DNA of 64,000 nt from Candidatus Sumerlaeota bacterium (GTDB lineage Bacteria; UBP6; UBA1177), in contig SLOD01000011.1 in assembly GCA_007132725.1 (NCBI GenBank), positions 117 to 64,116 on the forward strand, in the 5' to 3' direction. The position numbers and the translations under genes were made by a program. The notes beneath the pieces were generated by a model that made no database searches, was not told the DNA's origin, and saw nothing but the letters and a program-made list of their open reading frames with translations. Position 1 is the stretch's first letter, and every line of letters starts with the position of its first letter. This document shows positions 10,730 to 27,724 of the stretch, in pieces.

Positions 10730-13700
10730 TTGGGGCTGATGAGAGCTTATGCTCTAAGAAAATTAACTGAATGTTTGGTTAAAATTATTAATATAACTGT
10801 ATTGGAGGCAATCTTGAAAAAGTTCTTCTTCCTCTCTTTAGTTCTCTTTTTATCAATCTTACCGGAATATCTATCGGCAGATAATGTTGCGGTGTTCCCT
10901 ATCGGAGCCAGCCAAAGAAGCGAATGGAGTCTTGCAAAAGATGTTGACAGGATCATTGACAGAGATCTTCATAAAATAAGTGCTGCCAAAGCCTTGTCTT
11001 TTAGAGAAATCCTTTCTGCCGCTAACAGGAAACTTCTTGCAAGCTGCAGAGCTGATCTTAACTGTCAAAGGGAGATTTCCACAAAAGCAGGACGAAGAGA
11101 TATAGACTTTTTCCTTTTCTCAAGGCTCAGATTTGCTGAAAACAGAGATGTAGTTGTACAGACATATCTTTTTGATAGAAGATACAGCCGGCTTGAAACG
11201 GTTACACTTGAGATGGATTACAATATTTTTGCGGATGAAATAGCAGATAAACTTTTCCAAGCATGGAACAACATGCTGTCCAGACATGTTACCAAAGCAG
11301 CCCCTCCACCTCGCCAAAGGTTCGATGATGATTTTGATGATGATTTTGACAGGAGAGACAGGAGAAGAGAGAGAGAAGATTATGGAAGACCCGCCCCCAG
11401 AACATCGGAAGCTATAATTGCAGAAGGTTTCAGAGCTTATGCTGACGGCAATCTAAGACAAGCGAGATCCCTTTTCCAAAAAGCCGCTTCAAGAGATGTT
11501 GTTGCTCAAAGGCTTTTTAACGCTGTCGATGAGATCGGAAAATATTTAGCAAGAGCAAATGCATCCATAAAGGCGAAAAGATATGAAGAAGCTATTCCAA
11601 TTATAGCTAAAGCGGAAAGCCTTGATGAATCAATAAAAACCCTTGGTCAGAAATACGGAGTATTTTATCAGGAACCTGTCGAAAGAAAAACTTACCTTGA
11701 ACCTACACCAAGAGACATGAAGGTTGTAGAGTCTATACATAAAAGATATGCAGGAAAAACTGAAAAAGCAAGGAGAGACAGGGCTGCCGGAATATCGGAG
11801 ATAGACAAGTGGATAAACCAGAGGATCCGGGATAGAGAAGCAAAGATGAAGCAGTTTGTTGTTGATTCCGAAAACGCTGCTGCCCAGGAAAAGAAGGAAC
11901 TTGCTGAACTGAGAAAAGAAATAAAAGAGCTTCGCCACAAATGGGAACAGGAAGATGATGAAATAGAACAGAAAATCGTTGCTCTTGAAAGCAACCTGAC
12001 TTTGCTTGAACAAAGGGTTAAGGGTGTTGTAAAAGTATCAACAGAAAAAGAAGAAAAAGCAAGGAAGGCGGAGCTCGCAGCAGTAGATAAAAAATATAAG
12101 GAGCTTTTGAAAAAACTTCGTGAAGAAAGAAATGCTTTTTATGAAAAGCAAAAAGCGGAACTTGAAGAAGGTTCAAAAAATGTAGAAGCAAAAGTTGCGA
12201 AACTCCAGAAGCAAAAAAGTGAAAATGAGGAAGCTATAAGAAAGATAGATAAAAAGATAGAAGCTGCTACCAGAGAGTTTGAAGAATCAGAAAGAAAATA
12301 CTCAAGAGGAACTGAAGGGGTTAGGCTGAAACAGGAAGACGAAGACAGAAGATTCGCCGTTGAAGTTGAGAAGGAATATCAGGCTAAATTCGATGAATTA
12401 AACGAAAAATTAAGAGCTTATGATAAAAAAGATGCGGAGAGAAGAGAAGCCCTGAAGGTATTTGACAGAGAAATAGAAGACTTCCTTATGAAAAATGTGG
12501 AAATTATGTCTGCGTTTCAGGAAGATGTTGAAAAAGAAAGAACCGTTCTTGATAAAAAGTATAAAGGAAAGAAAGAAACCGCCGCTTCAGATGCTGAAAA
12601 AGAGTGGAACAAAAAACTTGAAGACTTTACTTCAGAAAAAAATGAGATAGAAGCCAAAATAGCAGAAGAAGAAACTCCGGCTTTAAAGAAACAGTTGGCA
12701 CAAATTGAAAAAAAGATATCAGCCCATGAAGAAAACAAAGACTCGTTTATCGCAGAAAAAGTTATGCAGGTGGAAATGGAACATGAGATGAAGTCTGCAG
12801 AACTTGATATGAAGCTTGTAAACAGGAACAACGAGCTTCAAAAAGAAAATAATGCTTTCAGAGATAAAAAACTGGCTGAAAAAAAGAAAGCCGAAGCCGA
12901 CTACAAAAATTTCCTCAAAAGAAAAGAGGATTTTAGAAAAAGCATAGAACGACAGGTAGAAATGGCACAGAAAGACAGAGACAATAAAATCGAAAAACGT
13001 AGAAAAGAAAGAGGTGCTCTTGCCACTACTTGGGAAAAAGAAGCAGAAAAAAGAAAACTTGCTTTTGAAAAGTCTATACAACCTGACAGAAATTTAAGGG
13101 AAAAACTTATTAAAGCAAATGAAAAGATCGACGATGATATTGTAAAAATCAATGATGCCTGGGAAAATCGGAGTCAAGATATAAGAATAGAACACCATAC
13201 CTCCTCAGAAAAATTTGAGGAAAATTGGAAAGAGCGATTCTCAAAAACAGAAGAAGAGTTTAAAGAAGCCAGAGAAGCTGTCGAAGACAAGTATGCTGAT
13301 AAACAACTGCAAGCCAGAGAAGCCCAGAAACGACAGAGAGTTGAATGGGAAGAAGCGATACAGGCTTTAAATGAGAAAAAAGCAAGGAATCAAAAAGAAA
13401 GACAAGCTATACTTGATCAAAAAAGGATGGAATGGGAAGAAAGACAGGCTGAAAGAAAAAGAGAAGAAGAGCAGAGAAAAATTGACAGAGAAAACTTTGC
13501 CGAAGAAATGAAAAGACTGAATACAGAAGATCGGGCTGAAGCAGCTATGAAGCGGAAAGATGTTGAAAGAAGATTCAAAGAAGCCACTGGCGATATATAT
13601 CAAGCTCAAATTGACGAAATCCGCAGCAAATTTCCTGACGATTTCAGATACACCAGAAGAAGAGAAGTTGTAGGAGTAAGAGCAAGCGAAAATATCCAGC

Positions 13701-13993
13701 TATTAAAAGCCAGCGCTCTTGCTCAAAGCGGACTTTTAAAATTACAGGACAGAGATATTCTCAATGCAAAAAGGCTTTTTGCCGAAACTCTGTTCCTTGA
13801 CAGTAACAACAAGATAGCACTGGATGGTATGAGATCCATTGAACTTACTGCGAAATCAATGTACTGGGAAGCTTTCGGAATGAGAGAAACAGACAGGGCC
13901 AAGGCAAGAGAAATATTTTCCTTGCTGGTACAAACACTGATGCCGTCCAGCGAATATTTTGTCAGAGCTAAAATTGCACTCGAAGACTTATAA
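10730..13993 (+). CDS. Large secreted or periplasmic coiled-coil protein of ~1060 aa. Probable true start is TTG 10814 (MKKFFFLSLVLFLSIL signal peptide) with GGAGG at 10804-10808. Architecture: ~130-aa N-domain, DDDFDDDFDRRDRRRERE linker, ~700 aa of E/K/R-rich heptad coil, C-terminal TPR-like helical domain.
   Basis: Signal peptide and extreme charged-coil composition read from the translation. No catalytic motifs. Its 3' end overlaps the dxr 3' end convergently by 6 nt. Confidence 0.55.
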   Translation: MGLMRAYALRKLTECLVKIINITVLEAILKKFFFLSLVLFLSILPEYLSADNVAVFPIGASQRSEWSLAKDVDRIIDRDLHKISAAKALSFREILSAANRKLLASCRADLNCQREISTKAGRRDIDFFLFSRLRFAENRDVVVQTYLFDRRYSRLETVTLEMDYNIFADEIADKLFQAWNNMLSRHVTKAAPPPRQRFDDDFDDDFDRRDRRREREDYGRPAPRTSEAIIAEGFRAYADGNLRQARSLFQKAASRDVVAQRLFNAVDEIGKYLARANASIKAKRYEEAIPIIAKAESLDESIKTLGQKYGVFYQEPVERKTYLEPTPRDMKVVESIHKRYAGKTEKARRDRAAGISEIDKWINQRIRDREAKMKQFVVDSENAAAQEKKELAELRKEIKELRHKWEQEDDEIEQKIVALESNLTLLEQRVKGVVKVSTEKEEKARKAELAAVDKKYKELLKKLREERNAFYEKQKAELEEGSKNVEAKVAKLQKQKSENEEAIRKIDKKIEAATREFEESERKYSRGTEGVRLKQEDEDRRFAVEVEKEYQAKFDELNEKLRAYDKKDAERREALKVFDREIEDFLMKNVEIMSAFQEDVEKERTVLDKKYKGKKETAASDAEKEWNKKLEDFTSEKNEIEAKIAEEETPALKKQLAQIEKKISAHEENKDSFIAEKVMQVEMEHEMKSAELDMKLVNRNNELQKENNAFRDKKLAEKKKAEADYKNFLKRKEDFRKSIERQVEMAQKDRDNKIEKRRKERGALATTWEKEAEKRKLAFEKSIQPDRNLREKLIKANEKIDDDIVKINDAWENRSQDIRIEHHTSSEKFEENWKERFSKTEEEFKEAREAVEDKYADKQLQAREAQKRQRVEWEEAIQALNEKKARNQKERQAILDQKRMEWEERQAERKREEEQRKIDRENFAEEMKRLNTEDRAEAAMKRKDVERRFKEATGDIYQAQIDEIRSKFPDDFRYTRRREVVGVRASENIQLLKASALAQSGLLKLQDRDILNAKRLFAETLFLDSNNKIALDGMRSIELTAKSMYWEAFGMRETDRAKAREIFSLLVQTLMPSSEYFVRAKIALEDL

Positions 13994-15996: not shown

Positions 15997-16833
15997 TCAA
16001 CTCCTTATCTGTTCCGTAGTTTTTCCAAATCGTCTTTCTCTGTTTGAATACTCTTTTATAGCATCTACAAAATTTTCCTTTTTAAAGTCAGGCCACAATA
16101 CATCTGTAAAATAAAGCTCAGAGTAGGCTATCTGCCACAACAGATAGTTACTTATCCTTATTTCACCTGAAGTCCTTAACAATAGATCAGGGTCAGGAAT
16201 ATCATGAGTGTAAAGGTGTTTTTTCATCACTTGGGAGTCAATATCTTCAACTTCCAGGTACCCCTTTTTCACTTGAAGAGCTATCTCTTTTACCGCTTTT
16301 AATATTTCATCCCTTGAACCATAACCCAGAGCAACGGTCAAAGTCATCTCATAACTTTGGCTTGAGGTTTCCTCAGATAAAGCAAGTGCTGCTTCTCTGA
16401 TCTTTTCAGGGACATTGCCCAAATCACCGATGAAATTAAGACGGATATTATTGTCAAGAAGCAAGTCCCGTCTCTTTTTGACACTTTGAGCAAGAAGAGA
16501 CATTAAACCATCCACTTCATCTCTGGGCCTTGACCAGTTCTCAGAAGAAAAAGCGTATAAAGTTAAATACCTTACCCCTATTTCTCTACTGAACCTAACT
16601 ATTTCATCTACCCTTTTTTCACCCTCAGCATGTCCTTTTAATCTGTTCCAAAATCTTTTTTTCGCCCATCTTCCATTCCCATCCATTATAACGGCTACAT
16701 GAGAAGGTATTTTATAGCCATTAAGTCCATATTTTTCTAGTCTTTCTTTCGTCATTTTACACCGAGATATTTGACTGGATTCACCCCTGTTTTCCTTCCA
16801 GAGCCTTATTAGCTTTTTCTGTGAGTTTCGCAA
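15997..16833 (-). CDS. uppS: Undecaprenyl-diphosphate synthase (isoprenyl transferase). Likely true start MTKERLEKYG at about 16755.
   Basis: HVAVIMDGNGRWAKKR and ...SxxNWxRP... motifs. Confidence 0.85.
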   Translation of the reverse strand: MRNSQKKLIRLWKENRGESSQISRCKMTKERLEKYGLNGYKIPSHVAVIMDGNGRWAKKRFWNRLKGHAEGEKRVDEIVRFSREIGVRYLTLYAFSSENWSRPRDEVDGLMSLLAQSVKKRRDLLLDNNIRLNFIGDLGNVPEKIREAALALSEETSSQSYEMTLTVALGYGSRDEILKAVKEIALQVKKGYLEVEDIDSQVMKKHLYTHDIPDPDLLLRTSGEIRISNYLLWQIAYSELYFTDVLWPDFKKENFVDAIKEYSNRERRFGKTTEQIRS

Positions 16834-17704
16834 TATAAGAATTGTTCTTTTCCATTGAAGCAGCCATTTTGAGCTGCGTTAAAGCAGATTTATAGTCCTT
16901 TTGATCCATTGCTTTACATGCCAGCCGGGCAAATCTTCTGGCTTGCGGGTTTTCAATAGTATCTTCCAGATTTTCCTCGTATGCCACTTTCATCCTGAAA
17001 TCGAATCTTTTAAGTTCAGGATTTTCAGAAAGCATTCTGTCATATATAGCTCTCCTGTTGGGGTGACTGAGGACAGAGTACGCTTCATTTGCTCTTTTCG
17101 TTATTTCATATGTCATATTCCGTATGTCAGAAGGAACATTCCTGAATTTATCAGGATGATATTTTCTTGCTAAAGAAACATACTTTTTTTTGATCTCTTC
17201 ACTTGCCGCCTTGGAAGATAGGTTGAAAAACTGATAATAATTCAGGTTATCCATCGAAGAAAAAAAGTTTTTGATCGTCTCGATGAAATCCTTGGTCATT
17301 ATGTCCGGCACCTTAACATTTCTCTCTATCTTCTCTATCACATTTTTTACAGCAGTGAGCAAAGTCTCACTGTTGACCGGGAGTTTAAAAAATGCTGCTG
17401 CTCCGTATTTGTCAGCGATCCCTTGGGAAACTTCCGGACCTTCAGGCACACCAAGCAAAATAAAGCTTTTAGCTTTACTGATAACAGGTAAAGCTTTTAA
17501 CCAGACACCTTCTTTTAAAAGAGACGAAACTATGACCGTAGAATATTCAGACAAGGGAAGTTTTGAAAGAGATTTTATTTCAGATACAGTATCCACCTCG
17601 CTTTCACTGATCTTATTGACTAAAAACAGTTTAAGGGATTGTAGATACTTTTCATCTTTCATCAGTATAAGGATTTTCGGTTTCATATCACTACTCCAAA
17701 CCAA
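16781..17704 (-). CDS. J-domain protein with an N-terminal degenerate (pseudo-)receiver domain and a C-terminal TPR-like helical region.
   Basis: J domain: [16 protein letters not shown]-terminus: MKPKILIL...VIVSSLL (no phospho-acceptor Asp)...FFKLP (REC-like K-P). Confidence 0.6.
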
Positions 17705-19232
17705 GAATGTTTAATGAAATTTTCTGGATTTTACCTGTTTCCTGATCGACTGCGCTTACATTCAGCACACCGTTAGTGTCAATCTCAAATTTAACTTCTA
17801 TTTTCAGCTCACCTCTCAGGGCTTTTCTTAAATTGGAAAGAGTCAGCTCCCCCATCAGGTGCGATTCGCTTTTTTTCTTTCCATCCCCCTGATATATCTC
17901 GATTCTAACAGCGTCCTGATTGTCTCTGGCATTTGTAAAAATGTTGGTCCTTTCAATGGGTAGAGGAGAATTTTTATCAACAAGTATTTCAATATAATCT
18001 CCTACTGACCCGACCCCTAAAGAAAGAGGTATGACATCAAGTAAAACAGGCGAAGCTTCACTGTAATCACTGACAAGAGTTTGGCCTAAAATACTGGCAC
18101 CCATTGAAATAACAAGAACAGATTCTATTCCGTAAAAAGGCGACTGTTGAAAAAACCGGGCTACTTTCTGCTGGACATAAGGAATTTTAGTTGATCCGCC
18201 GACAAGTATCACAGCATCAATATCTTCGGGTTTAAGGTGAGCATTTTCCATTGCTTTGTCACAGATATCAAATGTCTGTGATATAATAGGATCTATTATT
18301 TCATGATAAAGCCTTCTGTCAATAACTCTTTCATAGTCTTTTCTTGAACCGTCAGCCATAGGAACGATCCCTTTTATAAGCACTTTTATTTTTTCTTCTG
18401 TACTTAAAGATATTTTGATCCTTTCTGCTTCAGACAGAAGAATAGTTTGCATTTCGTTGTTCACAGGCAGTTCTGTATCAAAAGTTGTCTCTATATCAAC
18501 GACCATGAATTGAACAAGAGCTGCATCTATATCGTCTCCTCCAAGGAAACTGTCTCCTGCGGTTGAAAGCACCTCAAAAAAATTGTCCTTGACTTCAAGT
18601 ATGGTTACATCAAAAGTGCCTCCTCCAAAATCAAAAACAACGATTTTTTCGTTTAGATTGTTCCCGAAACCATACGCCAGTGCTGCTGCTGTGGGTTCGT
18701 TTATTATTCTTAAAACATTAAGTCCTGCAAGTTTTCCGGCATCCTGGGTTGCTCTTCTTTGAGCTTCATTATAATTTGCTGGAACAGTTATAACAGCATC
18801 GGTAACTTCAAAGCCAAGGTAATCCTGAGCCGCTTTTTTAGCTTTTTTTAAAACTAACGATGAAATAACTTGAGGTGTTATCCTTTTACCGAATATTTCT
18901 ATTTCAATTGAATCATTTTTACCGCCAACAACCTTGTAAGGAAACTTACTTGCAAACTTTCTTGTATCGGAGTGAGAATACTTTCTCCCTATTATCCTTT
19001 TTATACTGTAAATAGTGTTTATCGGATTTAAATGTCTTCGTTCTTTAGCTTTTTTCCCTACTATCACATTTTTTCCTTCATTTAAAAACGAAACAACAGA
19101 GGGCATTATTTTGTCGTCTTCCTCTCCTTTTATAGGAATGATCTGAGGCATTCCATCTCTGACGATAGAAACAGTAGTGGTAGAAGTACCGAGGTCTATG
19201 CCAAGTACAAAATTTGCAAATTTGTTAACCAT
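17691..19232 (-). CDS. Hsp70-family ATPase lacking the C-terminal alpha-helical lid (nucleotide-binding domain + beta-sandwich substrate-binding domain only, 513 aa).
   Basis: [12 protein letters not shown] (phosphate 1), [12 protein letters not shown] (phosphate 2), [12 protein letters not shown] (adenosine). Ends at a beta-SBD-like ...[13 protein letters not shown]... with no lid. Confidence 0.75.
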
Positions 19233-20753: not shown

Positions 20754-21818
20754 TTGATGAAAACAGATACTCATTTTTGTTTTACAGTCATTTTTTTACT
20801 TCTTCTGGGATTCCCTTACTTTATTACAGGGATCTCTGCAAAAGAAATTCTTTTCAAAGATGTAAACTTTGAATTATGTGTCAAAGAACATATTGATGAT
20901 AACTCCAACACAATCACAACCGGGCATCTTGAAAACATTGAAAAGCTTGAGTGCAACAACAGAGAGATATTTGTTATTGAGGGGATAGAATACATGTCCG
21001 GACTTAAGAAAGTCTCTTTCAGAAACAACTCCATAAGTGACATATCTCCCCTTAGAGTACTTACAAAACTTAATGAGCTTTGGCTTACCGGTAATTTTAT
21101 TGAAAATACCGACCCTCTTGCAGAGCTAACCGCTCTTTTGGTACTTGGGCTGGGGAACAATAAAATAAAAGAAGTAAAATCTATTTCACAACTTAAAAAT
21201 TTAACCCGGCTTGGAATAGAAAACAATATGGTTACCGACATATCTCCACTTTCGAACCTGCAAAACCTTCAGGCACTTGCAATGAGCGGAAATAAGGTCA
21301 AAGACATAAAGCCATTAAGCAAGATGAAAAAACTTTCCTGGATATGGGCTGATTCAAATAATATATCAGATATTTCTCCATTATCGTCAATGCACTGGAT
21401 AACACATGTAGAGCTTGGAAACAACAACATATCCTCTGTTTTACCAATTAAAAACCTTAAGAACATTGTAAGGCTCGGACTTGACTCAAACAGTATAAAA
21501 GATGCTACTCCACTGAAAAATATGTCTGCACTTAAAAGTCTCGCTATTTCTAAAAACAGGCTTTCTGAAATAAGTTTTATAAAGCAACTTCACAACCTTA
21601 CCTGGCTTGGGGCTTCACATAATAATATTTCTAACATAGAACCGTTAACATCTCTAACAAAGTTAAAACATCTTCTTTTAAGCAACAACGCTATAAAAGA
21701 TGTCAACCCCCTTTTAAACTTAAAAAATCTCAAACATGTTGACTTGTCTAATAATCCTGTTTCCGATTTTTCTGTGCTTGATCCTTTAACTGACTCCGGA
21801 GCTGTCGTCATAAAATAA
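20754..21818 (+). CDS. Secreted leucine-rich-repeat protein (internalin-like 22-residue LRRs, ~13 repeats) with an N-terminal signal peptide.
   Basis: Repeats of LxxLxxLxxLxLxxNxIxDIxPL, e.g. NISDISPLSS..., MVTDISPLSNLQNLQAL. Confidence 0.75.
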   Translation: MMKTDTHFCFTVIFLLLLGFPYFITGISAKEILFKDVNFELCVKEHIDDNSNTITTGHLENIEKLECNNREIFVIEGIEYMSGLKKVSFRNNSISDISPLRVLTKLNELWLTGNFIENTDPLAELTALLVLGLGNNKIKEVKSISQLKNLTRLGIENNMVTDISPLSNLQNLQALAMSGNKVKDIKPLSKMKKLSWIWADSNNISDISPLSSMHWITHVELGNNNISSVLPIKNLKNIVRLGLDSNSIKDATPLKNMSALKSLAISKNRLSEISFIKQLHNLTWLGASHNNISNIEPLTSLTKLKHLLLSNNAIKDVNPLLNLKNLKHVDLSNNPVSDFSVLDPLTDSGAVVIK

Positions 21819-21946
21819 GTTTGTAAATAAATTTTACATCTATTTGTTAAATTTTTAACAATGTAAATACTGTTAAAGCAACAGGGCGGGAAAAAGCATG
21901 TTTTTTCAGCCTATTACCAGGGCACACTTTTTGCTACATCATCCTG

Positions 21947-23113
21947 TTGTTGTTTGAACTAGCGAGTGAGTGTATTGAAATGTCTTTAAAAGAAAATGCT
22001 ACCTGCTTTAACTCTCAAACTTTGGTAAGTAATTTTGCACAAGATGTCCAGACTTATTCTCCGGCAAGCTCCAGAGATAAAGTTACATCAAAGCCTAAAA
22101 ACGAAAACCTTTACCCTTTAAAACTGGATTGGAATGAATCCACTGTCCCCCCCTCTCCTCTCGTTAAAGAAGCTTTGAAAAATGCTCTTGAAAAAGAGAT
22201 AAATCTTCTCAACTGGTACCCTGAACTTTACAGCAAAAAGTTGGTATCAAAACTTACTGAATATACTAACAGATCTGCAGATGAAATTCTTGTTACAAAC
22301 GGCAGTGATGACGCATTGGAGCTTATATGTAAAATTTTCCTTGATCCAGGAGACCATGTTCTTGTACCTTTCCCTACATACACTCACTTTATAACATATG
22401 TTCAATCAAGAGGGGCAGTATTGAAAAAAGTGGAAACCCCGGACCCGTTTTCCCCGGATATAACTTCAATAATCAATAACGTTACCAAGGATACGAAGTT
22501 GATATATATTGTTAATCCCAATAATCCAACAGGAGTTCTTCTTTCAAAAAAACAGATTTCAACAGTCTGTTCCGTCGCAAAAAACAGTGTGATACTTGTT
22601 GATGAAGCTTATTTTGAGTTTTCCGGAGAAAGTGTGAGCGATCTTGTTGAAACATATCCTAATTTGATAGTGACACGAACTCTCTCTAAGGCATGGGCTC
22701 TTGCAGGTTTAAGAGTTGGATATATCCTCACAAATCCACTTACCATCAAGGACCTTGCCCGAGTTTTGAATCCAAAGAGCGTAAGTGCTCTTGCTCAGGT
22801 TGCAGCCTATGCAGCATTATCTGATCCACAATATATGAACCGTTTTGTAAGAGAAGTTGAAGCAAGCAAAATGCTTCTATTGGATTTTTTCAAAAAAAAC
22901 AACATCAACGCTTATGACAGTGCTGCAAACTATATAATGGTGCAACACCCTAAGCTGGAGCGATTACTCTACGAAATGGAGAATGAAAATATTTTTGTGA
23001 GAGACAGGAGCTTTTTTAAAAATCTGCCAGGTTTTTTTAGAATAACACTCGGTAATCATTTGCAAACTGATGAACTCTTAACAAGACTCGAAAGGGTTCT
23101 TTCAAGAATTTAA
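21947..23113 (+). CDS. Class I/II PLP-dependent aminotransferase, histidinol-phosphate aminotransferase (HisC/CobD) family.
   Basis: ...NPNNPTG...VDEAY.EF... and SKAWALAGLRVGY (PLP-lysine SKxxxxxGxRxGY). Confidence 0.65.
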   Translation: MLFELASECIEMSLKENATCFNSQTLVSNFAQDVQTYSPASSRDKVTSKPKNENLYPLKLDWNESTVPPSPLVKEALKNALEKEINLLNWYPELYSKKLVSKLTEYTNRSADEILVTNGSDDALELICKIFLDPGDHVLVPFPTYTHFITYVQSRGAVLKKVETPDPFSPDITSIINNVTKDTKLIYIVNPNNPTGVLLSKKQISTVCSVAKNSVILVDEAYFEFSGESVSDLVETYPNLIVTRTLSKAWALAGLRVGYILTNPLTIKDLARVLNPKSVSALAQVAAYAALSDPQYMNRFVREVEASKMLLLDFFKKNNINAYDSAANYIMVQHPKLERLLYEMENENIFVRDRSFFKNLPGFFRITLGNHLQTDELLTRLERVLSRI

Positions 23114-23151
23114 AACTTTTCTTCATTTTTTCAGGAATATAGAGCATAATT

Positions 23152-23778
23152 TTGTTGTTTGTCTTTTGTCAGAGCTTGGGCTTTGCGTTTTGTTTAGGAG
23201 AGGAAGCAAAGTTGGAAGAACTTATCAAAGAAAACCTTGATGTTATCTTCAGTTACTCATTATTTATCACGGGTAACAGGGAAAAAGCTCTTGACCTTAT
23301 GCAGGATACAATAATTACCGTCTTACGAAAAAAACACCTCTATAAAGAACAGACCTATTTCAAGTCATGGATATTTAAGGTTCTAAAAAACAACTTTATC
23401 AACACTTTAAAAAAAGAAAGTATCCGTAATGAAATAAATTTAACTGACATTTCCAATGAAGGAGAGGAAACACCTGTTTTTTTAAATCGGGACAATGCGG
23501 GAATTGAATATCTAAACGACCCGATCCTTAGAAGTAAAATATATGAGGTGTTCTCTGATATGCCACAGGAATATAAAGATGTCGTTACATTAGTTGAAAT
23601 AAGTGAAATGTCGTATGAAGAAGTTTCTCAGGCACTTGATATTCCATTGGGAACAGTAATGAGCAGACTTCACAGAGGACGGATGTATCTTAGAAAAATG
23701 CTTCGTAAAGAAGCTGGTGAGTTAAAAATAATTTCAAAAAAAGGACAGGAAAAATGCACGACAAAAAATGCGATTTAA
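23152..23778 (+). CDS. ECF-type RNA polymerase sigma factor. A plausible alternative start is TTG 23212 with RBS AGGAGAGG.
   Basis: Region 2 (...DLMQDTIITV...) and region 4 HTH (DIPLGTVMSRLHRGR). Confidence 0.75.
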   Translation: MLFVFCQSLGFAFCLGEEAKLEELIKENLDVIFSYSLFITGNREKALDLMQDTIITVLRKKHLYKEQTYFKSWIFKVLKNNFINTLKKESIRNEINLTDISNEGEETPVFLNRDNAGIEYLNDPILRSKIYEVFSDMPQEYKDVVTLVEISEMSYEEVSQALDIPLGTVMSRLHRGRMYLRKMLRKEAGELKIISKKGQEKCTTKNAI

Positions 23779-24575
23779 ACGAACTTTTTATTGAACAACT
23801 CATTGACAGTGAGTTGGATTTTAGTGAAAGTTCTGAAGTTTCACTTCACATTGAAAGCTGTGCCAACTGTAAAAAAATATATGATGAACTGAAATTTGTC
23901 CGCGTCATCATGAAAGATGTTGAAAAAAGAGAAACGCTCTCCCCAATTGAAAAAGAAGGTTTCTATAATATGATCGAAAAACATGCTGCCAAACTCTCAG
24001 TATGGGGGAAAATAAAAACTTTTCTAAATACAAAAAGCCATTTTATATTTGCTTTCACCTCTATGTCTTTTATTTTACTGACAGCTTTTTTTATTTTTTC
24101 AATTTTAAACATTGACAGCAGCAGGGACCTTATAATACAGGAAATAATTTCTGCCCATGACAACAATTTTCCGGAAGAATTCAGTATGACTGCCAGCGAA
24201 GAATCTCTCAAGAATGTTAACCTGAAACAGCTGAAAGTCGATCCTGTAGTAATAAGAGAACTGGCTAAGATATCCCCTGTATTAAAAGGGCGTCATACAT
24301 CTATTGCCGCTCAACCCATGGCTAAAATAAAACTGAAAGATAAAAATTCTACCGGAACTCTTTTAATGAGCAGAAAAAACGACACTATAAAAAATGTATT
24401 TCAAAATGCAAACTGTGTAGTGAGATATCCTGATGGAAAAACTTGCAAAGCTACATCATACGAACAGGACGGCAAAGAAATAGTTTACTGGGCATCAAAA
24501 GAGAATGAATATGTTTTTGTGTCGGACAACAGAGATTTGAGTTCAAGAATGATACGCCTTATTGGTTCCCATTAA
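23754..24575 (+). CDS. Anti-sigma factor (zinc-finger type, single TM) cognate to the upstream ECF sigma.
   Basis: N-terminal HxxxCxxC (HIESCANCKK) zinc-finger anti-sigma motif; one TM (FIFAFTSMSFILLTAFFIF). Overlaps the sigma gene 3' end. Confidence 0.65.
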   Translation: MHDKKCDLNELFIEQLIDSELDFSESSEVSLHIESCANCKKIYDELKFVRVIMKDVEKRETLSPIEKEGFYNMIEKHAAKLSVWGKIKTFLNTKSHFIFAFTSMSFILLTAFFIFSILNIDSSRDLIIQEIISAHDNNFPEEFSMTASEESLKNVNLKQLKVDPVVIRELAKISPVLKGRHTSIAAQPMAKIKLKDKNSTGTLLMSRKNDTIKNVFQNANCVVRYPDGKTCKATSYEQDGKEIVYWASKENEYVFVSDNRDLSSRMIRLIGSH

Positions 24576-24586
24576 AGTTTAACCGT

Positions 24587-27500
24587 TCAACTATTATCAA
24601 CATCTTTTATTTTTGAAACCTCTTTTTTTAATTTAGAAGTTTCGGTATTAAGTTTTTTGGAAACCTGATAAATGCTGTCAACCATCCCGGTATTTTCCTG
24701 AGTTATCTTTCTGATATCACTTAAAGAAATATCAACCGAGCGCACCTCGTCAGTATGGTCTTCGATTATTTTTCTTACATCGTTCATTTGTCTTGAAATG
24801 GTCTTGAACTGACCTATTATTTCACTGATAAATTTTACCGTATTGTTAACGGATGACCTTCCTGAAACAACTTTTTCAGAAGTATCATCTATCAGTTTTT
24901 TTATTGTCACGACAGCATTGGAAGTTTGTAAAGAAAGTTCTCTGACAGAATCTGCCACAACAGCAAAGCCTTTTCCGGCATCACCTGCTCTGGCTGCTTC
25001 AATAGCGGCATTAAGAGAAAGGAGGTTTGTCTGGAAAGCAATATCATCTACAACTTCAACTATGTTTGAAACCTCTAAAGCACTGTATTCTATCCTTTCT
25101 ATTGATTCCACAGCTTCGCTGAGGACGGAAGTGGAGAGATCGGCTTTTTTTGAAATATCAGAAACCGTTTCATGCATGACCTGTACTTCATCTTTTGTTT
25201 CCTCAAGCTTGCCTGTTATATCAGACAATGTAGAAGATGCTGTATCTATCATTGCATAAGTTGCATTAAATTTTTCAGCGGTCATACCCGTATTCGATGA
25301 TATTACTTTAGATATATCTCCGAGAGTATCAGAAAGTTTTTGAACATGCAGTATTATGTCTTTAAGATTTTTCGTTCTGGTCGCAATTGTGCTGCTCATA
25401 GTAGTTTCTCTATCCTTTATCTCAGCACTTTTCTTTCTGATATAGGACACTGCCATGTATCCGGCAGCAAGAAGAATAATAAGCCTAAACCACCATGTCT
25501 GCCAGAAAAAAGGTTTAATGACGATAATGAGAGATACCCCCTCATTATTCCACACATTATCATTGTTGGCTGCAAGCACCTTGAATTCATACTCTCCGGG
25601 ACCTAAATTAGTATAGAAAGCATTTCTCTGTGTGCCGACATTTCTCCATCTGTCATCAAAACCCTTCAATTTATATTTAAATGTCACCTGATCAGGAAAA
25701 AGTAAGCTCAGCCCGGTATATTCAAAAGAAACCATCGTTGTACCCGGTTCGAAAGAAAACCTCTTTCTGCCATGGACAGGATAAGTGACATCATCTATAG
25801 TTACAGATGTAATATGAACAGGAGGCACCACAGAGTTGTGTCTCATATCTCCCGGATCAGCAACAACCAAGCCTTCTGCAGTAGGCACCCATATTCTGCC
25901 ATCTCTGCTCCTCCAGATGTTAGGCTGTGTTCCTCCGTTACACTCAGGAGTTAAAAGACCATCTTTAAACCCGAAAGTTCTGGGTTCGACAGTAGAAGTC
26001 CTTCCACTAAGAAAAGAGTCAAGGTCACTTTTCTCTATAAATTTTATCCCCTTGTTGGATGTCAACCATAAGTTACCGTTGAAATCCTCAGTAACATCGA
26101 AAATAGTTCTTGTATCCAATCCCCTGCTTCTGTCAATTGTTACTGCCCCCAGCTCTTTGTCATAAATAGTGAGTCCATTTTCCGAGGCAAAAAACAGTCT
26201 TCCGTCAAAAGCGGAGTAAATAGACAAGGTCCCAATATTCTCAAGATTTGTAAATTCAGTGATCAGTTTTTCACCTTGAACTCTAAACGGTCCTAACTTC
26301 GTTGCAATCCATATTGAACCCGATCTGTCTTCTGTAATACCCGACAGACCTATATTATCAGTCCCGGGCAAGGTAATAATTTTGTCTCCTTTCATATAAG
26401 CAAGGCCACCTGTAAGCATCCCTATCCAAAGAGTACCTCTTGAATCTTTGAACAGGGCAGAAATGTCTTTGCCCGGCAAACCATCAAACTCATCATATAA
26501 TCTGGCTACTCCGTCTTTCAGCCTTAGGAGTCCTTTTCCATAGACTCCGGCCCACAAAACTCTGTCATTATCTTCAAACAAAGAGAGCACAGTATCATAA
26601 GATTCCAACTTTCCCCTGAAAGTGTATCTTGTCAACTTGTTATCCCTCAACCGGTACAATGCACCCGCCCAGGTTCCAAGCCACATTGAACCATCATGAC
26701 TCTCAAAAACAGGAAAAACTACAGGCTGATCTAAGCCGCTATGTCTTCCATAAGTTATAAACTTCCCCTCCTTGAACCGGTAAAGACCGTAACCGCTGGT
26801 ACCGACCCAGACACTCCCTTCTCTATCCTCAAGGATACTGAAAACATAATTTTTACCTATAGAGCTGACATAGTTATCATCATCGGAACATATTCTGAAG
26901 AGTCCATCGTTGTATGTCCCCACAAAAACACATTCATGGTTATCAACATACAGCCCGCTTATCATTCTGTTAGCAAAAAACTCAGGTCTATATGAGCGGG
27001 ATCTACCAGAGACAGTATCAAACAAATATACTCCGGCACCTCTTGTTCCAAGCAGAAAACTTCTCTCGTCTATAGCCACAGCTTTGGTTATTTCGCGTGG
27101 AAATTTAAGTTCTTTTGTGGCTCTTGTTCCCTGGAGCCTTGAAAAGTAACTTTCTGTTCCAACCCATATTGTCCCGTCACCGCCTTTAATAACTTCTCCT
27201 ACGTTATCTGATGGAAGCCCGGACGATTTATTGATTACTGCTTCAACGCCGTTTTCTCCTAACACAACAAGACCATTTCTCCTTGTTCCAAAATAAAAAG
27301 TTCCATTGTTATCTTCAGCACCGGAAGTGATATTGTTGCTTGGAAGACCTTTTTGAGTATCAAAAATTTCATAGGTTTCATCTATATAGTTAAATTTTAT
27401 AATTCCTCCGCCATCTGTCCCTATCCACAGATAAGGTTTGGTCGAATCTTCCAGAATAAGTTCTGTTTTGTGGTTATCAACAGGAAAAAAGGAGTCGTCG

Positions 27501-27724
27501 TAAACATCCATTTTTATTCCGTCAAATTTAACAAAACCCTCTTCCGTTCCAAGCCACATAAAACCATCTCTTGCCTGAACCATTGTTCTCACAGAGTTTT
27601 GGGGAAGTCCGGACAAAATATCGTAGCTGTCGATCATAAATTGATCAAGGGAAATATCTCTGGATAAACCATCAAGCACCATCATAGAAATAAAAACCAA
27701 AAAATAAACAACTGTTTTTTTCAT
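24587..27724 (-). CDS. Methyl-accepting chemotaxis protein with a large periplasmic two-component-regulator-propeller + Y_Y_Y sensor module, one TM, and a cytoplasmic MCP signalling domain.
   Basis: Signal peptide and repeated Reg_prop-like blades (GLPxNxVxxxxxDxxGxxWxGT). Y_Y_Y-like [18 protein letters not shown], then [20 protein letters not shown]-terminal highly conserved MCP core [31 protein letters not shown]. Confidence 0.7.

Follow-up and report, generated by a model that had tools for sequence, protein, structure and literature searches.

A lid-less Hsp70 and a J-domain protein with a pseudo-receiver domain encoded directly ahead of uppS in candidate phylum UBP6

RESULTS AND DISCUSSION

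A gene pair for a lid-less Hsp70 and a J-domain protein

An Hsp70/J gene pair was analyzed in a 64,000-nucleotide (nt) stretch of DNA from a Candidatus Sumerlaeota bacterium (candidate phylum UBP6, UBA1177; GenBank assembly GCA_007132725.1, contig SLOD01000011.1, positions 117 to 64,116 of the forward strand), here called the window and numbered from its first letter. The pair lies on the minus strand between frr and uppS and consists of a gene for a 513-amino-acid (aa) Hsp70 that ends before the alpha-helical lid (19232-17691, stop codon included) and a gene for a 301-aa J-domain protein, here called the J-protein (ATG 17686 to 16781). A two-gene module of this kind had been described in an initial annotation; open reading frames (ORFs) are indeed present at those positions, and the public gene calls for this contig, made independently, list identical products for frr, the Hsp70 gene, the J-protein gene, and uppS (187, 513, 301, and 252 aa, respectively). 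The GC content of the pair (0.37-0.38) is the same as that of its flanks, and no further Hsp70 or J domain was found within the 64-kb window.

The Pfam profile HSP70 (PF00012) matched the Hsp70 with an E value of 1.4e-148, over profile positions 1-496 of 599 only. Residues 9-508 align to residues 4-502 of Escherichia coli DnaK (2KHO), and the ORF ends 5 residues on, its C terminus (...LNILGLE) being the point at which lid helix A of DnaK begins (...SSGLNEDEI). The AlphaFold2 model, built on 36 relatives (predicted local distance difference test score [pLDDT], 87.5), has a nucleotide-binding domain (residues 9-387; 18072..19208, minus strand), followed by the linker PVLLDV and a beta-sandwich substrate-binding domain (residues 388-508; 17709..18071, minus strand) of eight beta strands (residues 396-508), with no helix past residue 387. 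The ATPase domain, the linker, and the beta-sandwich of an Hsp70 are therefore present, and the alpha-helical part of the substrate-binding domain (SBD-alpha, the lid) is absent, as had been claimed from the sequence. When residues 503-638 of DnaK, the lid, were searched for with tblastn in every frame of the window, there was no match (best E = 2.2, elsewhere), and the DNA just downstream of the Hsp70 gene is taken up by the conserved J-protein ORF. The end point LNILGL[E/G] recurs in about 45 clusters of Hsp70 relatives, and in 30 of 30 related loci, the Hsp70 encoded beside the J-protein can be aligned to DnaK only as far as about residue 501. A frameshifted full-length dnaK, which the initial annotation had named as the finding that would undo its reading, or a truncated one is ruled out, since no frame of the window holds a lid-like sequence and the end point is common to the relatives.

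Residues D13, K78, E179, D201, G203-T206, and D208, the equivalents of DnaK D8, K70, E171, D194, T199, and D201, are invariant in the 36 relatives, and so are the linker VLLDV and a 14-residue J-binding segment. The hydrophobic pocket of the peptide cleft is also kept (equivalents of F426, V436, I438, and A429). Because the catalytic residues, the J-binding segment, the linker, and the pocket have all been retained, the Hsp70 looks like an active, allosterically coupled chaperone without a lid and not like a dead relic. Its scores are below the cutoffs of the NCBIfam models for DnaK (PRK00290 and TIGR02350; 510 versus 648 and 497.3 versus 822.55) and HscA (456.8 versus 708.55), and it is 39% identical to DnaK and 31% identical to E. 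coli HscC.

A J-domain protein with a receiver-like N terminus

In the J-protein, Pfam recognizes the J domain only (DnaJ, PF00226, E = 9e-15; residues 149-216; 17039..17242, minus strand), with a His-Pro-Asp (HPD) triad (H177, P178, and D179; 17150-17158) that is invariant in 59 J-protein sequences. A G/F (glycine/phenylalanine) region, a zinc finger, and DnaJ_C were not found with Pfam, and the score for TIGR02349 is 54.8 versus a cutoff of 377. Since the regions of class A and class B DnaJ proteins are absent, the protein is a class C J-protein. With the Hsp70 below the DnaK cutoffs and the J domain as the only recognized part of its partner, the pair is not canonical DnaK/DnaJ, in agreement with what had been proposed. 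The J-protein was also below the cutoffs of the NCBIfam models for HscB (20.9-35.7 bits versus 46.75-198) and DjlA (19.7 versus 162).

The AlphaFold2 model of the J-protein was built on 59 sequences (pLDDT 88.5; predicted template modeling score [pTM], 0.52). Residues 4-122 were modeled as b1a1b2a2b3a3b4a4b5a5, the topology of a receiver, followed by a helix (residues 132-147), a four-helix J domain (about residues 150-221), a coil (residues 222-239), and three helices (residues 247-299). In a Foldseek search of the PDB, the receiver-like domain (residues 1-122; 17321..17686, minus strand) matched isolated receivers with a probability of 1.00, a template modeling score of about 0.8 (target normalized), and a root mean square deviation of 2.2-2.6 A; the matches were BfmR, RstA, VicR, PhoP, KdpE, MtrA, DesR, PorX, and CpaE-type domains. 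The structure predictions thus bear out both the missing lid of the Hsp70 and the REC-like fold of the J-protein that had been read from the sequence.

The active site was mapped by alignment to CheY, PhoB, and Spo0F. The phospho-acceptor Asp of CheY (D57) corresponds to S54 in the J-protein, CheY D12 to K10, T87 to G80, and K109 to L102, and CheY D13 is kept as D11; four of five receiver signature residues have been lost. The N-domain, as modeled, is a receiver fold without the phospho-acceptor Asp, and the sequence VIVSS at the acceptor position had been noted correctly. The KP motif that was said to be retained is not: only its proline is invariant (P103, the equivalent of the cis-proline P110 of CheY), the position of CheY K109 is Leu, Val, or Ala in the family, and the Lys one residue before it varies (K/R/N/T/Q). 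Of the Pfam matches that had been anticipated, HSP70 and DnaJ were obtained, but Response_reg (PF00072) was not matched by any of the 59 J-protein members at E <= 1. Weak matches to the TadZ-like atypical receiver (TadZ-like_ARD) were found in 17 of the 59 members, and no Pfam family reached its threshold for this domain.

All three parts of the J-protein keep invariant residues. Column conservation is highest in the coil segment of residues 222-246 (0.79; 16949..17023, minus strand), followed by the J domain (0.76), the helical tail (0.71), and the receiver-like domain (0.64). The coil segment has the motif KRFDFRxKVxYEE..EDTIxNxQARRF and is predicted to be without regular secondary structure (DSSP coil; block pLDDT 91 and 72). 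The best-kept stretches of the receiver-like domain (MKDEKYL, IVSS, WLKALP, and FFKLP) form the former active-site face. For the tail (16790..16948, minus strand), in which QLKMA is invariant, resemblance to tetratricopeptide repeats (TPRs) had been suggested. Three helices are predicted there, with a TPR-like hairpin; the TPR_19 and TPR_18 matches are weak, occur in 3 of 59 members, and remain below the Pfam thresholds.

The gene string and the conserved Hsp70-J-uppS unit

In the window, the seven genes pyrH-frr-Hsp70-J-uppS-cdsA-dxr lie head-to-tail on the minus strand. The pair is preceded by pyrH (UMP kinase; 20572-19838), the first gene of the string, identified in the ORF list and as AA_kinase in the public gene call, and by frr (ribosome recycling factor, 187 aa; 19808-19245; Pfam RRF, E = 2e-61). 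It is followed by uppS (undecaprenyl-diphosphate synthase, 252 aa; ATG 16755 to 15997; Pfam Prenyltransf, E = 1e-83), cdsA (CDP-diglyceride synthase; 15995-15132), and dxr (15142-13988), the last gene; cdsA and dxr are from the ORF list, with homologues of cdsA present and dxr conserved in related loci. Successive gaps from pyrH to cdsA are 29, 12, 4, 25, and 1 nt, and cdsA and dxr overlap by 11 nt. The frr stop is 12 nt ahead of the Hsp70 start, and the J-protein ATG, with GGAG 8 nt upstream, is 4 nt past the Hsp70 stop, which agrees with the tight spacing and the start near 17686 given initially. The mechanically called ORF starts, TTG 17704 for the J-protein and TTG 16833 for uppS, are too long (extra stretches 17687-17704 and 16756-16833), and with the latter, uppS and the J gene would have 53 nt in common. 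Homologues, which share the start Met of the J-protein, and the public gene calls support ATG 17686 and ATG 16755 as the true starts. This spacing is consistent with cotranscription of the string, as had been suggested, and with translational coupling of the Hsp70 and J genes. Scans of the region from 13.5 to 21 kb were uninformative: 19 promoter-like sites were found versus 17.8 expected from shuffled sequence, and there were 10 terminator-like sites versus 5.6 +/- 2.6, but these were within coding regions or on the opposite strand.

The full-length J-protein was found in about 95 clusters at 90% identity and in 30 loci of a species-representative genome collection; at 50% identity, 1.84 billion representatives contained just four clusters of it. 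The source genomes are from rumen, digester, and sediment, include UBA1177, UBA1196, and UBA1209 of UBP6, and are placed by NCBI under unclassified candidate phyla. Labels in public records for this lineage are inconsistent (Candidatus Sumerlaeota, uncultured Spirochaetales, or bacterium UBP6; L001, L004, L007, L010, L016, and others); synteny and sequence identity, on which this grouping is based, show that the differently labeled UBP6 records belong together.

The synteny of the frr-uppS junction was surveyed in these relatives. The Hsp70 gene is directly ahead of the J-protein gene in 30 of 30 UBP6 loci, and uppS directly follows in all 29 loci with enough downstream sequence. The genes pyrH-frr are ahead of the pair in 13 loci, and cdsA comes after uppS in at least 11. 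In a rumen clade, the links to frr and cdsA are both broken: the upstream genes are divergent (RecX-like, HD, and zinc-finger genes), and uppS is followed by mraZ-rsmH-ftsI in four loci (L013-L015 and L029; about 7.8-11.8 kb) and by unrelated or opposite-strand genes in others. In this clade, there is a 4-nt overlap between the Hsp70 and J genes, and the start of uppS lies 3-11 nt beyond the J gene. Because the frr and cdsA links break in the rumen clade while uppS stays, the conserved unit is Hsp70-J-uppS, which is phylum-wide and vertically kept. The initial annotation had seen a local insertion into the pyrH-dxr string; this view has to be abandoned, uppS being the constant neighbor. The window has a division and cell wall cluster of its own (mraZ 58880-58401, rsmH 58399-57482, and ftsI 57088-55013, minus strand), about 38 kb from the pair.

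Across the phylum, identity to the window proteins is 53-84% for the Hsp70, 64-77% for pyrH, 60-79% for frr, 54-89% for uppS, and 40-73% for the J-protein. At the level of protein identity, the Hsp70 is thus shown to be as conserved as pyrH and frr, which indicates strong purifying selection. In five loci (L023-L026 and L030; for example, L024 2862-4385 and 4470-5990), two tandem lid-less Hsp70 genes precede the J gene. The upstream copy encodes 523-534 aa and keeps an acidic, helix-A-like tail of about 20 residues, and the comparison of the copies suggests stepwise lid loss after duplication.

Relatives of the pair outside UBP6

The best Hsp70 matches beyond the phylum are 42-48% identical and uniformly short (515-586 aa). 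Several are labeled Myxococcales or Deltaproteobacteria. They end 15-40 residues past the beta-sandwich, leaving room for helix A at most. We examined 11 outgroup loci with both genes (L080-L083, L032-L035, L041, L063, and L085). In 11 of 11, a J-protein gene directly follows the short Hsp70 gene, and in ten the product is 160-180 aa long; this small J-protein (about 30% identity) has a helix, the J domain, a basic and aromatic linker, and the same TPR-like tail. Judged from these sequences, the cassette of a lid-truncated Hsp70 and a J-protein with this tail is older and wider than UBP6: it is also present in Myxococcota, relatives of Bradymonas, and further deltaproteobacterial lineages. A different subgroup has the gene order Hsp70 (565 aa, lid-truncated)-J-bipA. 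Some Hsp70 genes of Myxococcota (L032-L035, L041, and L063) have 0.55-1.3 kb inserted after the ATPase domain, ahead of the beta-sandwich; in one of them (L033, 3203-6001), an insertion of about 1 kb results in a 932-aa Hsp70, followed by a 163-aa J-protein and then a Ser/Thr kinase gene.

In an exhaustive search of representatives, more than 140 clusters shared the module of J domain plus tail, with varied N-terminal additions. One group of 291-297 aa is colinear with the window J-protein, including the receiver-like N-domain. It includes Bradymonas sediminis, and one member has a weak Response_reg match (E = 6e-4). In these Bradymonas-type J-proteins, the acceptor position is His or Tyr (AIVHE / AVIYE); they are 24-30% identical to the window J-protein and 52-74% identical to one another. 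The order J-cdsA-rseP-tsaB was found in five of five Bradymonas-type loci (L084, L086, L087, L091, and L092), the upstream genes of which vary; neither uppS nor a lid-less Hsp70 gene is beside the J gene in them. In B. sediminis, a 607-aa Hsp70 is encoded about 7 kb from the receiver-like J gene. An Oligoflexia locus (L065) that had been considered as a further receiver-J locus, because its match started at residue 83, was rejected: its architecture is a different one, in which a J-protein of 393 aa contains a long TPR region and an Hsp70 of 595 aa comes next. The representative search also yielded a 679-aa protein (P0243) with six tandem J domains (Pfam DnaJ, E = 1e-121).

Comparison with known Hsp70/J systems

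HscA and HscB, the Hsp70 and J-protein for Fe-S clusters, are the model for dedicated Hsp70/J pairs in bacteria; their genes are adjacent in the operon of the pathway they serve, and the non-J domain of HscB delivers one client. HscA has a full lid, the UBP6 pair is below the HscA and HscB cutoffs, and no isc genes are nearby; membership of this family is rejected by the NCBIfam scores. In E. coli, HscC is a specialized Hsp70 whose C-terminal region is shortened and whose gene lies near those of its own J-proteins, DjlC and DjlB. Membership of the HscC/DjlC group is rejected as well, the UBP6 Hsp70 being nearer to DnaK than to HscC and DjlC giving no significant alignment.

Pseudo-receivers, such as the atypical receiver domain (ARD) of TadZ/CpaE and FrzS, have a receiver fold without a phosphorylatable Asp and serve as interaction or localization modules. 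The N-domain of the J-protein shares with the TadZ/CpaE ARDs the fold without acceptor; its fusion to a J domain is where UBP6 differs.

The nearest outside relatives are among the noncanonical Hsp70s of Myxococcota (cl35085 but not PRK00290), which, in the loci examined, have a small J-protein directly after them; the published members MXAN_2747, MXAN_3016, and MXAN_5323 are likened to the UBP6 pair by description. Myxococcus xanthus has nine cl35085 Hsp70s, only two of which are true DnaKs, and the others include MXAN_2747, with a very short SBD-alpha, and MXAN_5323, of 925 aa (PMC8265645), which the 932-aa Hsp70 described above recalls. The non-DnaK Hsp70s are weakly expressed and nonessential, do not complement E. 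coli dnaK, and are said to have "unknown specific functions" (PMC8265645). The numbering of the J-proteins MXAN_3015 and MXAN_2745 adjoins that of two M. xanthus Hsp70s (PMC11019930). The M. xanthus Hsp70 StkA (MXAN_3474; about 540 aa) acts as a repressor of exopolysaccharide (PMC4319316). Compared with the Myxococcota paralogues, the UBP6 Hsp70 has lost even helix A, the J-protein has gained a pseudo-receiver, and the pair has become fixed before uppS.

A second comparison is with the yeast ribosome-associated complex (RAC), in which the natural lid-less Hsp70 Ssz1 is held by Zuo1, an LP motif of which lies in the Ssz1 cleft, and substrate binding is of low affinity and transient (PMC7083937). 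For lid-less DnaK, lower affinity and 10- to 100-fold faster on and off rates are given in the summary of that work in PMC7083937. Ssz1-Zuo1 and the UBP6 pair share an Hsp70 without lid and a J-protein partner. However, Ssz1 binds but cannot hydrolyze ATP and has an atypical linker, whereas the catalytic residues and linker of the UBP6 Hsp70 are invariant; Ssz1-Zuo1 is eukaryotic (fungi) and related to the UBP6 pair only through the Hsp70 and J-domain families.

DjlA, like the UBP6 J-protein, is a class C J-protein, and its non-J part localizes Hsp70 action to an envelope regulatory complex. It differs in being membrane anchored, in having a TerB-like domain, and in using canonical DnaK, and the score for the DjlA model given above rejects membership of that family. 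Capsule synthesis depends on undecaprenyl phosphate. In E. coli, DjlA/DnaK turns on capsule synthesis by loosening IgaA-RcsD (PMC11709261).

In the literature searched, we found no account of a receiver-J fusion or of a bacterial Hsp70 that naturally stops at the beta-sandwich; the coverage of this search was partial, and the result is absence of evidence only. The cassette of a lid-truncated Hsp70 and a J-protein with the tail is known but uncharacterized, and what is new in UBP6 is the complete loss of the lid, the fused pseudo-receiver, and the fixed position at uppS.

Proposed function of the pair and alternatives

The two genes very probably encode a functional Hsp70/J pair, and this pair is, on balance, somewhat more probably dedicated than general. 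The explanation that we favor overall, to which we give about an even chance, is a dedicated, fast-cycling Hsp70/J machine that acts on a partner selected by an adaptor, possibly in envelope-lipid synthesis. The pair would be transcribed together with the housekeeping string, the J domain, its HPD triad intact, would trigger ATP hydrolysis in the neighboring Hsp70, and the missing lid would result in fast cycling of low affinity. Because engineered lid-less DnaK cycles peptides 10-100 times faster and with lower affinity, such a machine would be expected to act transiently, remodeling specific and probably folded clients or complexes, few in number or even single, and not to perform bulk folding. 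The nonphosphorylatable pseudo-receiver, the conserved linker motif, and the TPR-like hairpin would together form the adaptor that picks the partner or site.

Since uppS always follows the pair in UBP6 and, in a second phylum, cdsA-rseP always follows the distant receiver-like J gene, the pair would most likely act in the synthesis of envelope lipids and lipid carriers (undecaprenyl phosphate and CDP-diacylglycerol) or its coordination with growth. As a long shot, the pair could be a dedicated chaperone-based controller or assembly factor for UppS, CdsA, and perhaps RseP, an envelope-lipid checkpoint kept in two phyla, with the once-catalytic face of the receiver reused for sensing a ligand or partner. 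A client in envelope-lipid synthesis nevertheless is the weakest step, and we put it forward tentatively, as possible at best. Several observations weigh against the favored explanation. The linkage may only reflect reliance of uppS on a promoter upstream of the pair, that is, operon inertia. Outgroup cassettes are not beside uppS, and their neighbors vary (lytic transglycosylase, amidase, CvpA, Ser/Thr kinase, and BipA genes). In the Bradymonas loci, no lid-less Hsp70 gene is beside the J gene. How the three parts of the J-protein are oriented to one another is not predicted reliably, as the pTM of 0.52 indicates, and the term dedicated fails if UBP6 genomes lack a canonical DnaK.

This last point leads to the first alternative, in which the lid-less Hsp70/J pair is a general replacement, the main or only Hsp70 system of UBP6, which would explain its location in a housekeeping operon with constitutive expression, and has a merely historical link to uppS. 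A pair that is placed among translation genes, with an Hsp70 that has been conserved as much as pyrH and frr across the phylum and that keeps a generic hydrophobic cleft pocket, would suit such a role, as would the lack of a second Hsp70 or J domain in the window. We nonetheless think it unlikely: the nearest relatives are Myxococcota accessory paralogues that exist beside canonical DnaK and do not complement E. coli dnaK (PMC8265645), the J-protein is without a known unfolded-protein-binding domain (G/F region, zinc finger, or DnaJ_C), and lid-less DnaK has reduced substrate affinity, according to work cited in PMC7083937. If it did hold, the whole proteome of UBP6 could be served by a lid-less Hsp70, with no canonical DnaK, a surprise that is likewise a long shot.

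Alternatively, the two proteins could form a stable 1:1 heterodimer as in Ssz1-Zuo1, with the J domain activating another, canonical Hsp70 and the KRFDFRxKVxY motif as a candidate pseudo-substrate in the Hsp70 cleft. We rate this RAC-like arrangement as rather improbable. The Hsp70 keeps every catalytic residue and a canonical linker, all invariant, unlike Ssz1, and the small J-proteins of the outgroups have kept the motif only in part. The precedent of a lid-less Ssz1 with the LP motif of Zuo1 in its cleft (PMC7083937) does speak for it, together with the apparent translational coupling of the two genes, the unstructured, basic and aromatic-rich character of the best-conserved J-protein segment, and the position of the pair after frr in nonrumen UBP6 and before bipA in another lineage, both being ribosome-linked genes.

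In a third alternative, the pair would act on a regulator of envelope or polysaccharide synthesis and not on an enzyme, with the pseudo-receiver docking a two-component or related partner. Pseudo-receivers are typically interaction modules, the closest Pfam signal of the N-domain is TadZ-like and its Foldseek matches include CpaE-type domains, and the former active-site face is the best-conserved part of this domain. There are also precedents for chaperone action of this kind, in DjlA/DnaK on IgaA-RcsD (PMC11709261) and in StkA on exopolysaccharide (PMC4319316). With no kinase or regulator gene conserved beside the pair in UBP6, however, we hold signaling through such a partner to be a poor prospect, and it overlaps the dedicated Hsp70/J machine favored here to a degree at which sequence alone cannot separate the two. 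An artefact or decay of dnaK, or a recent mobile or defense insertion, for which the shortness of the ORF for an Hsp70 is the sole support, is refuted by the absence of a lid in any frame, the shared end point, the GC content matching the flanks, the absence of PADLOC defense-system matches to the Hsp70 or the J-protein at E <= 0.01, and the phylum-wide synteny, and its probability is negligible.

In studies of the Hsp70 mechanism, the lid is regarded as central to substrate trapping. In UBP6, a natural and strongly conserved bacterial Hsp70 ends exactly where engineered lid-less DnaK constructs end, and, with its full ATPase domain and linker, it would be a ready-made system for asking what an Hsp70 does without a lid. 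The combination of pseudo-receiver and J domain illustrates how class C J-proteins may choose clients. How the supply of undecaprenyl phosphate and CDP-diacylglycerol is regulated is poorly understood, and the fixed place of the genes, ahead of uppS in UBP6 and ahead of cdsA-rseP in Bradymonas, offers a lead that may tie a chaperone to this supply. B. sediminis has been cultured, so the envelope-lipid idea is open to genetic testing. If the pair is only a generic accessory chaperone, its interest is modest; a UBP6 without canonical DnaK, if true, would itself be remarkable.

Other genes near the string

Beyond dxr, a 1087-aa Lys/Glu-rich, coiled-coil-like protein with a hydrophobic N terminus and no Pfam match is encoded on the plus strand (10730-13993); its ORF is convergent with dxr, and the last 6 nt of the two ORFs (13988-13993) are shared. 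Upstream of pyrH (region 20754-27724), genes for a leucine-rich repeat (LRR) protein (20754-21818), an aminotransferase, and an extracytoplasmic function (ECF) sigma factor with a probable anti-sigma partner (23152-24575) lie on the opposite strand. Next to these, on the minus strand (24587-27724), is a gene for a 1045-aa chemoreceptor-type protein with Reg_prop/Y_Y_Y and methyl-accepting chemotaxis protein (MCP) signaling domains.

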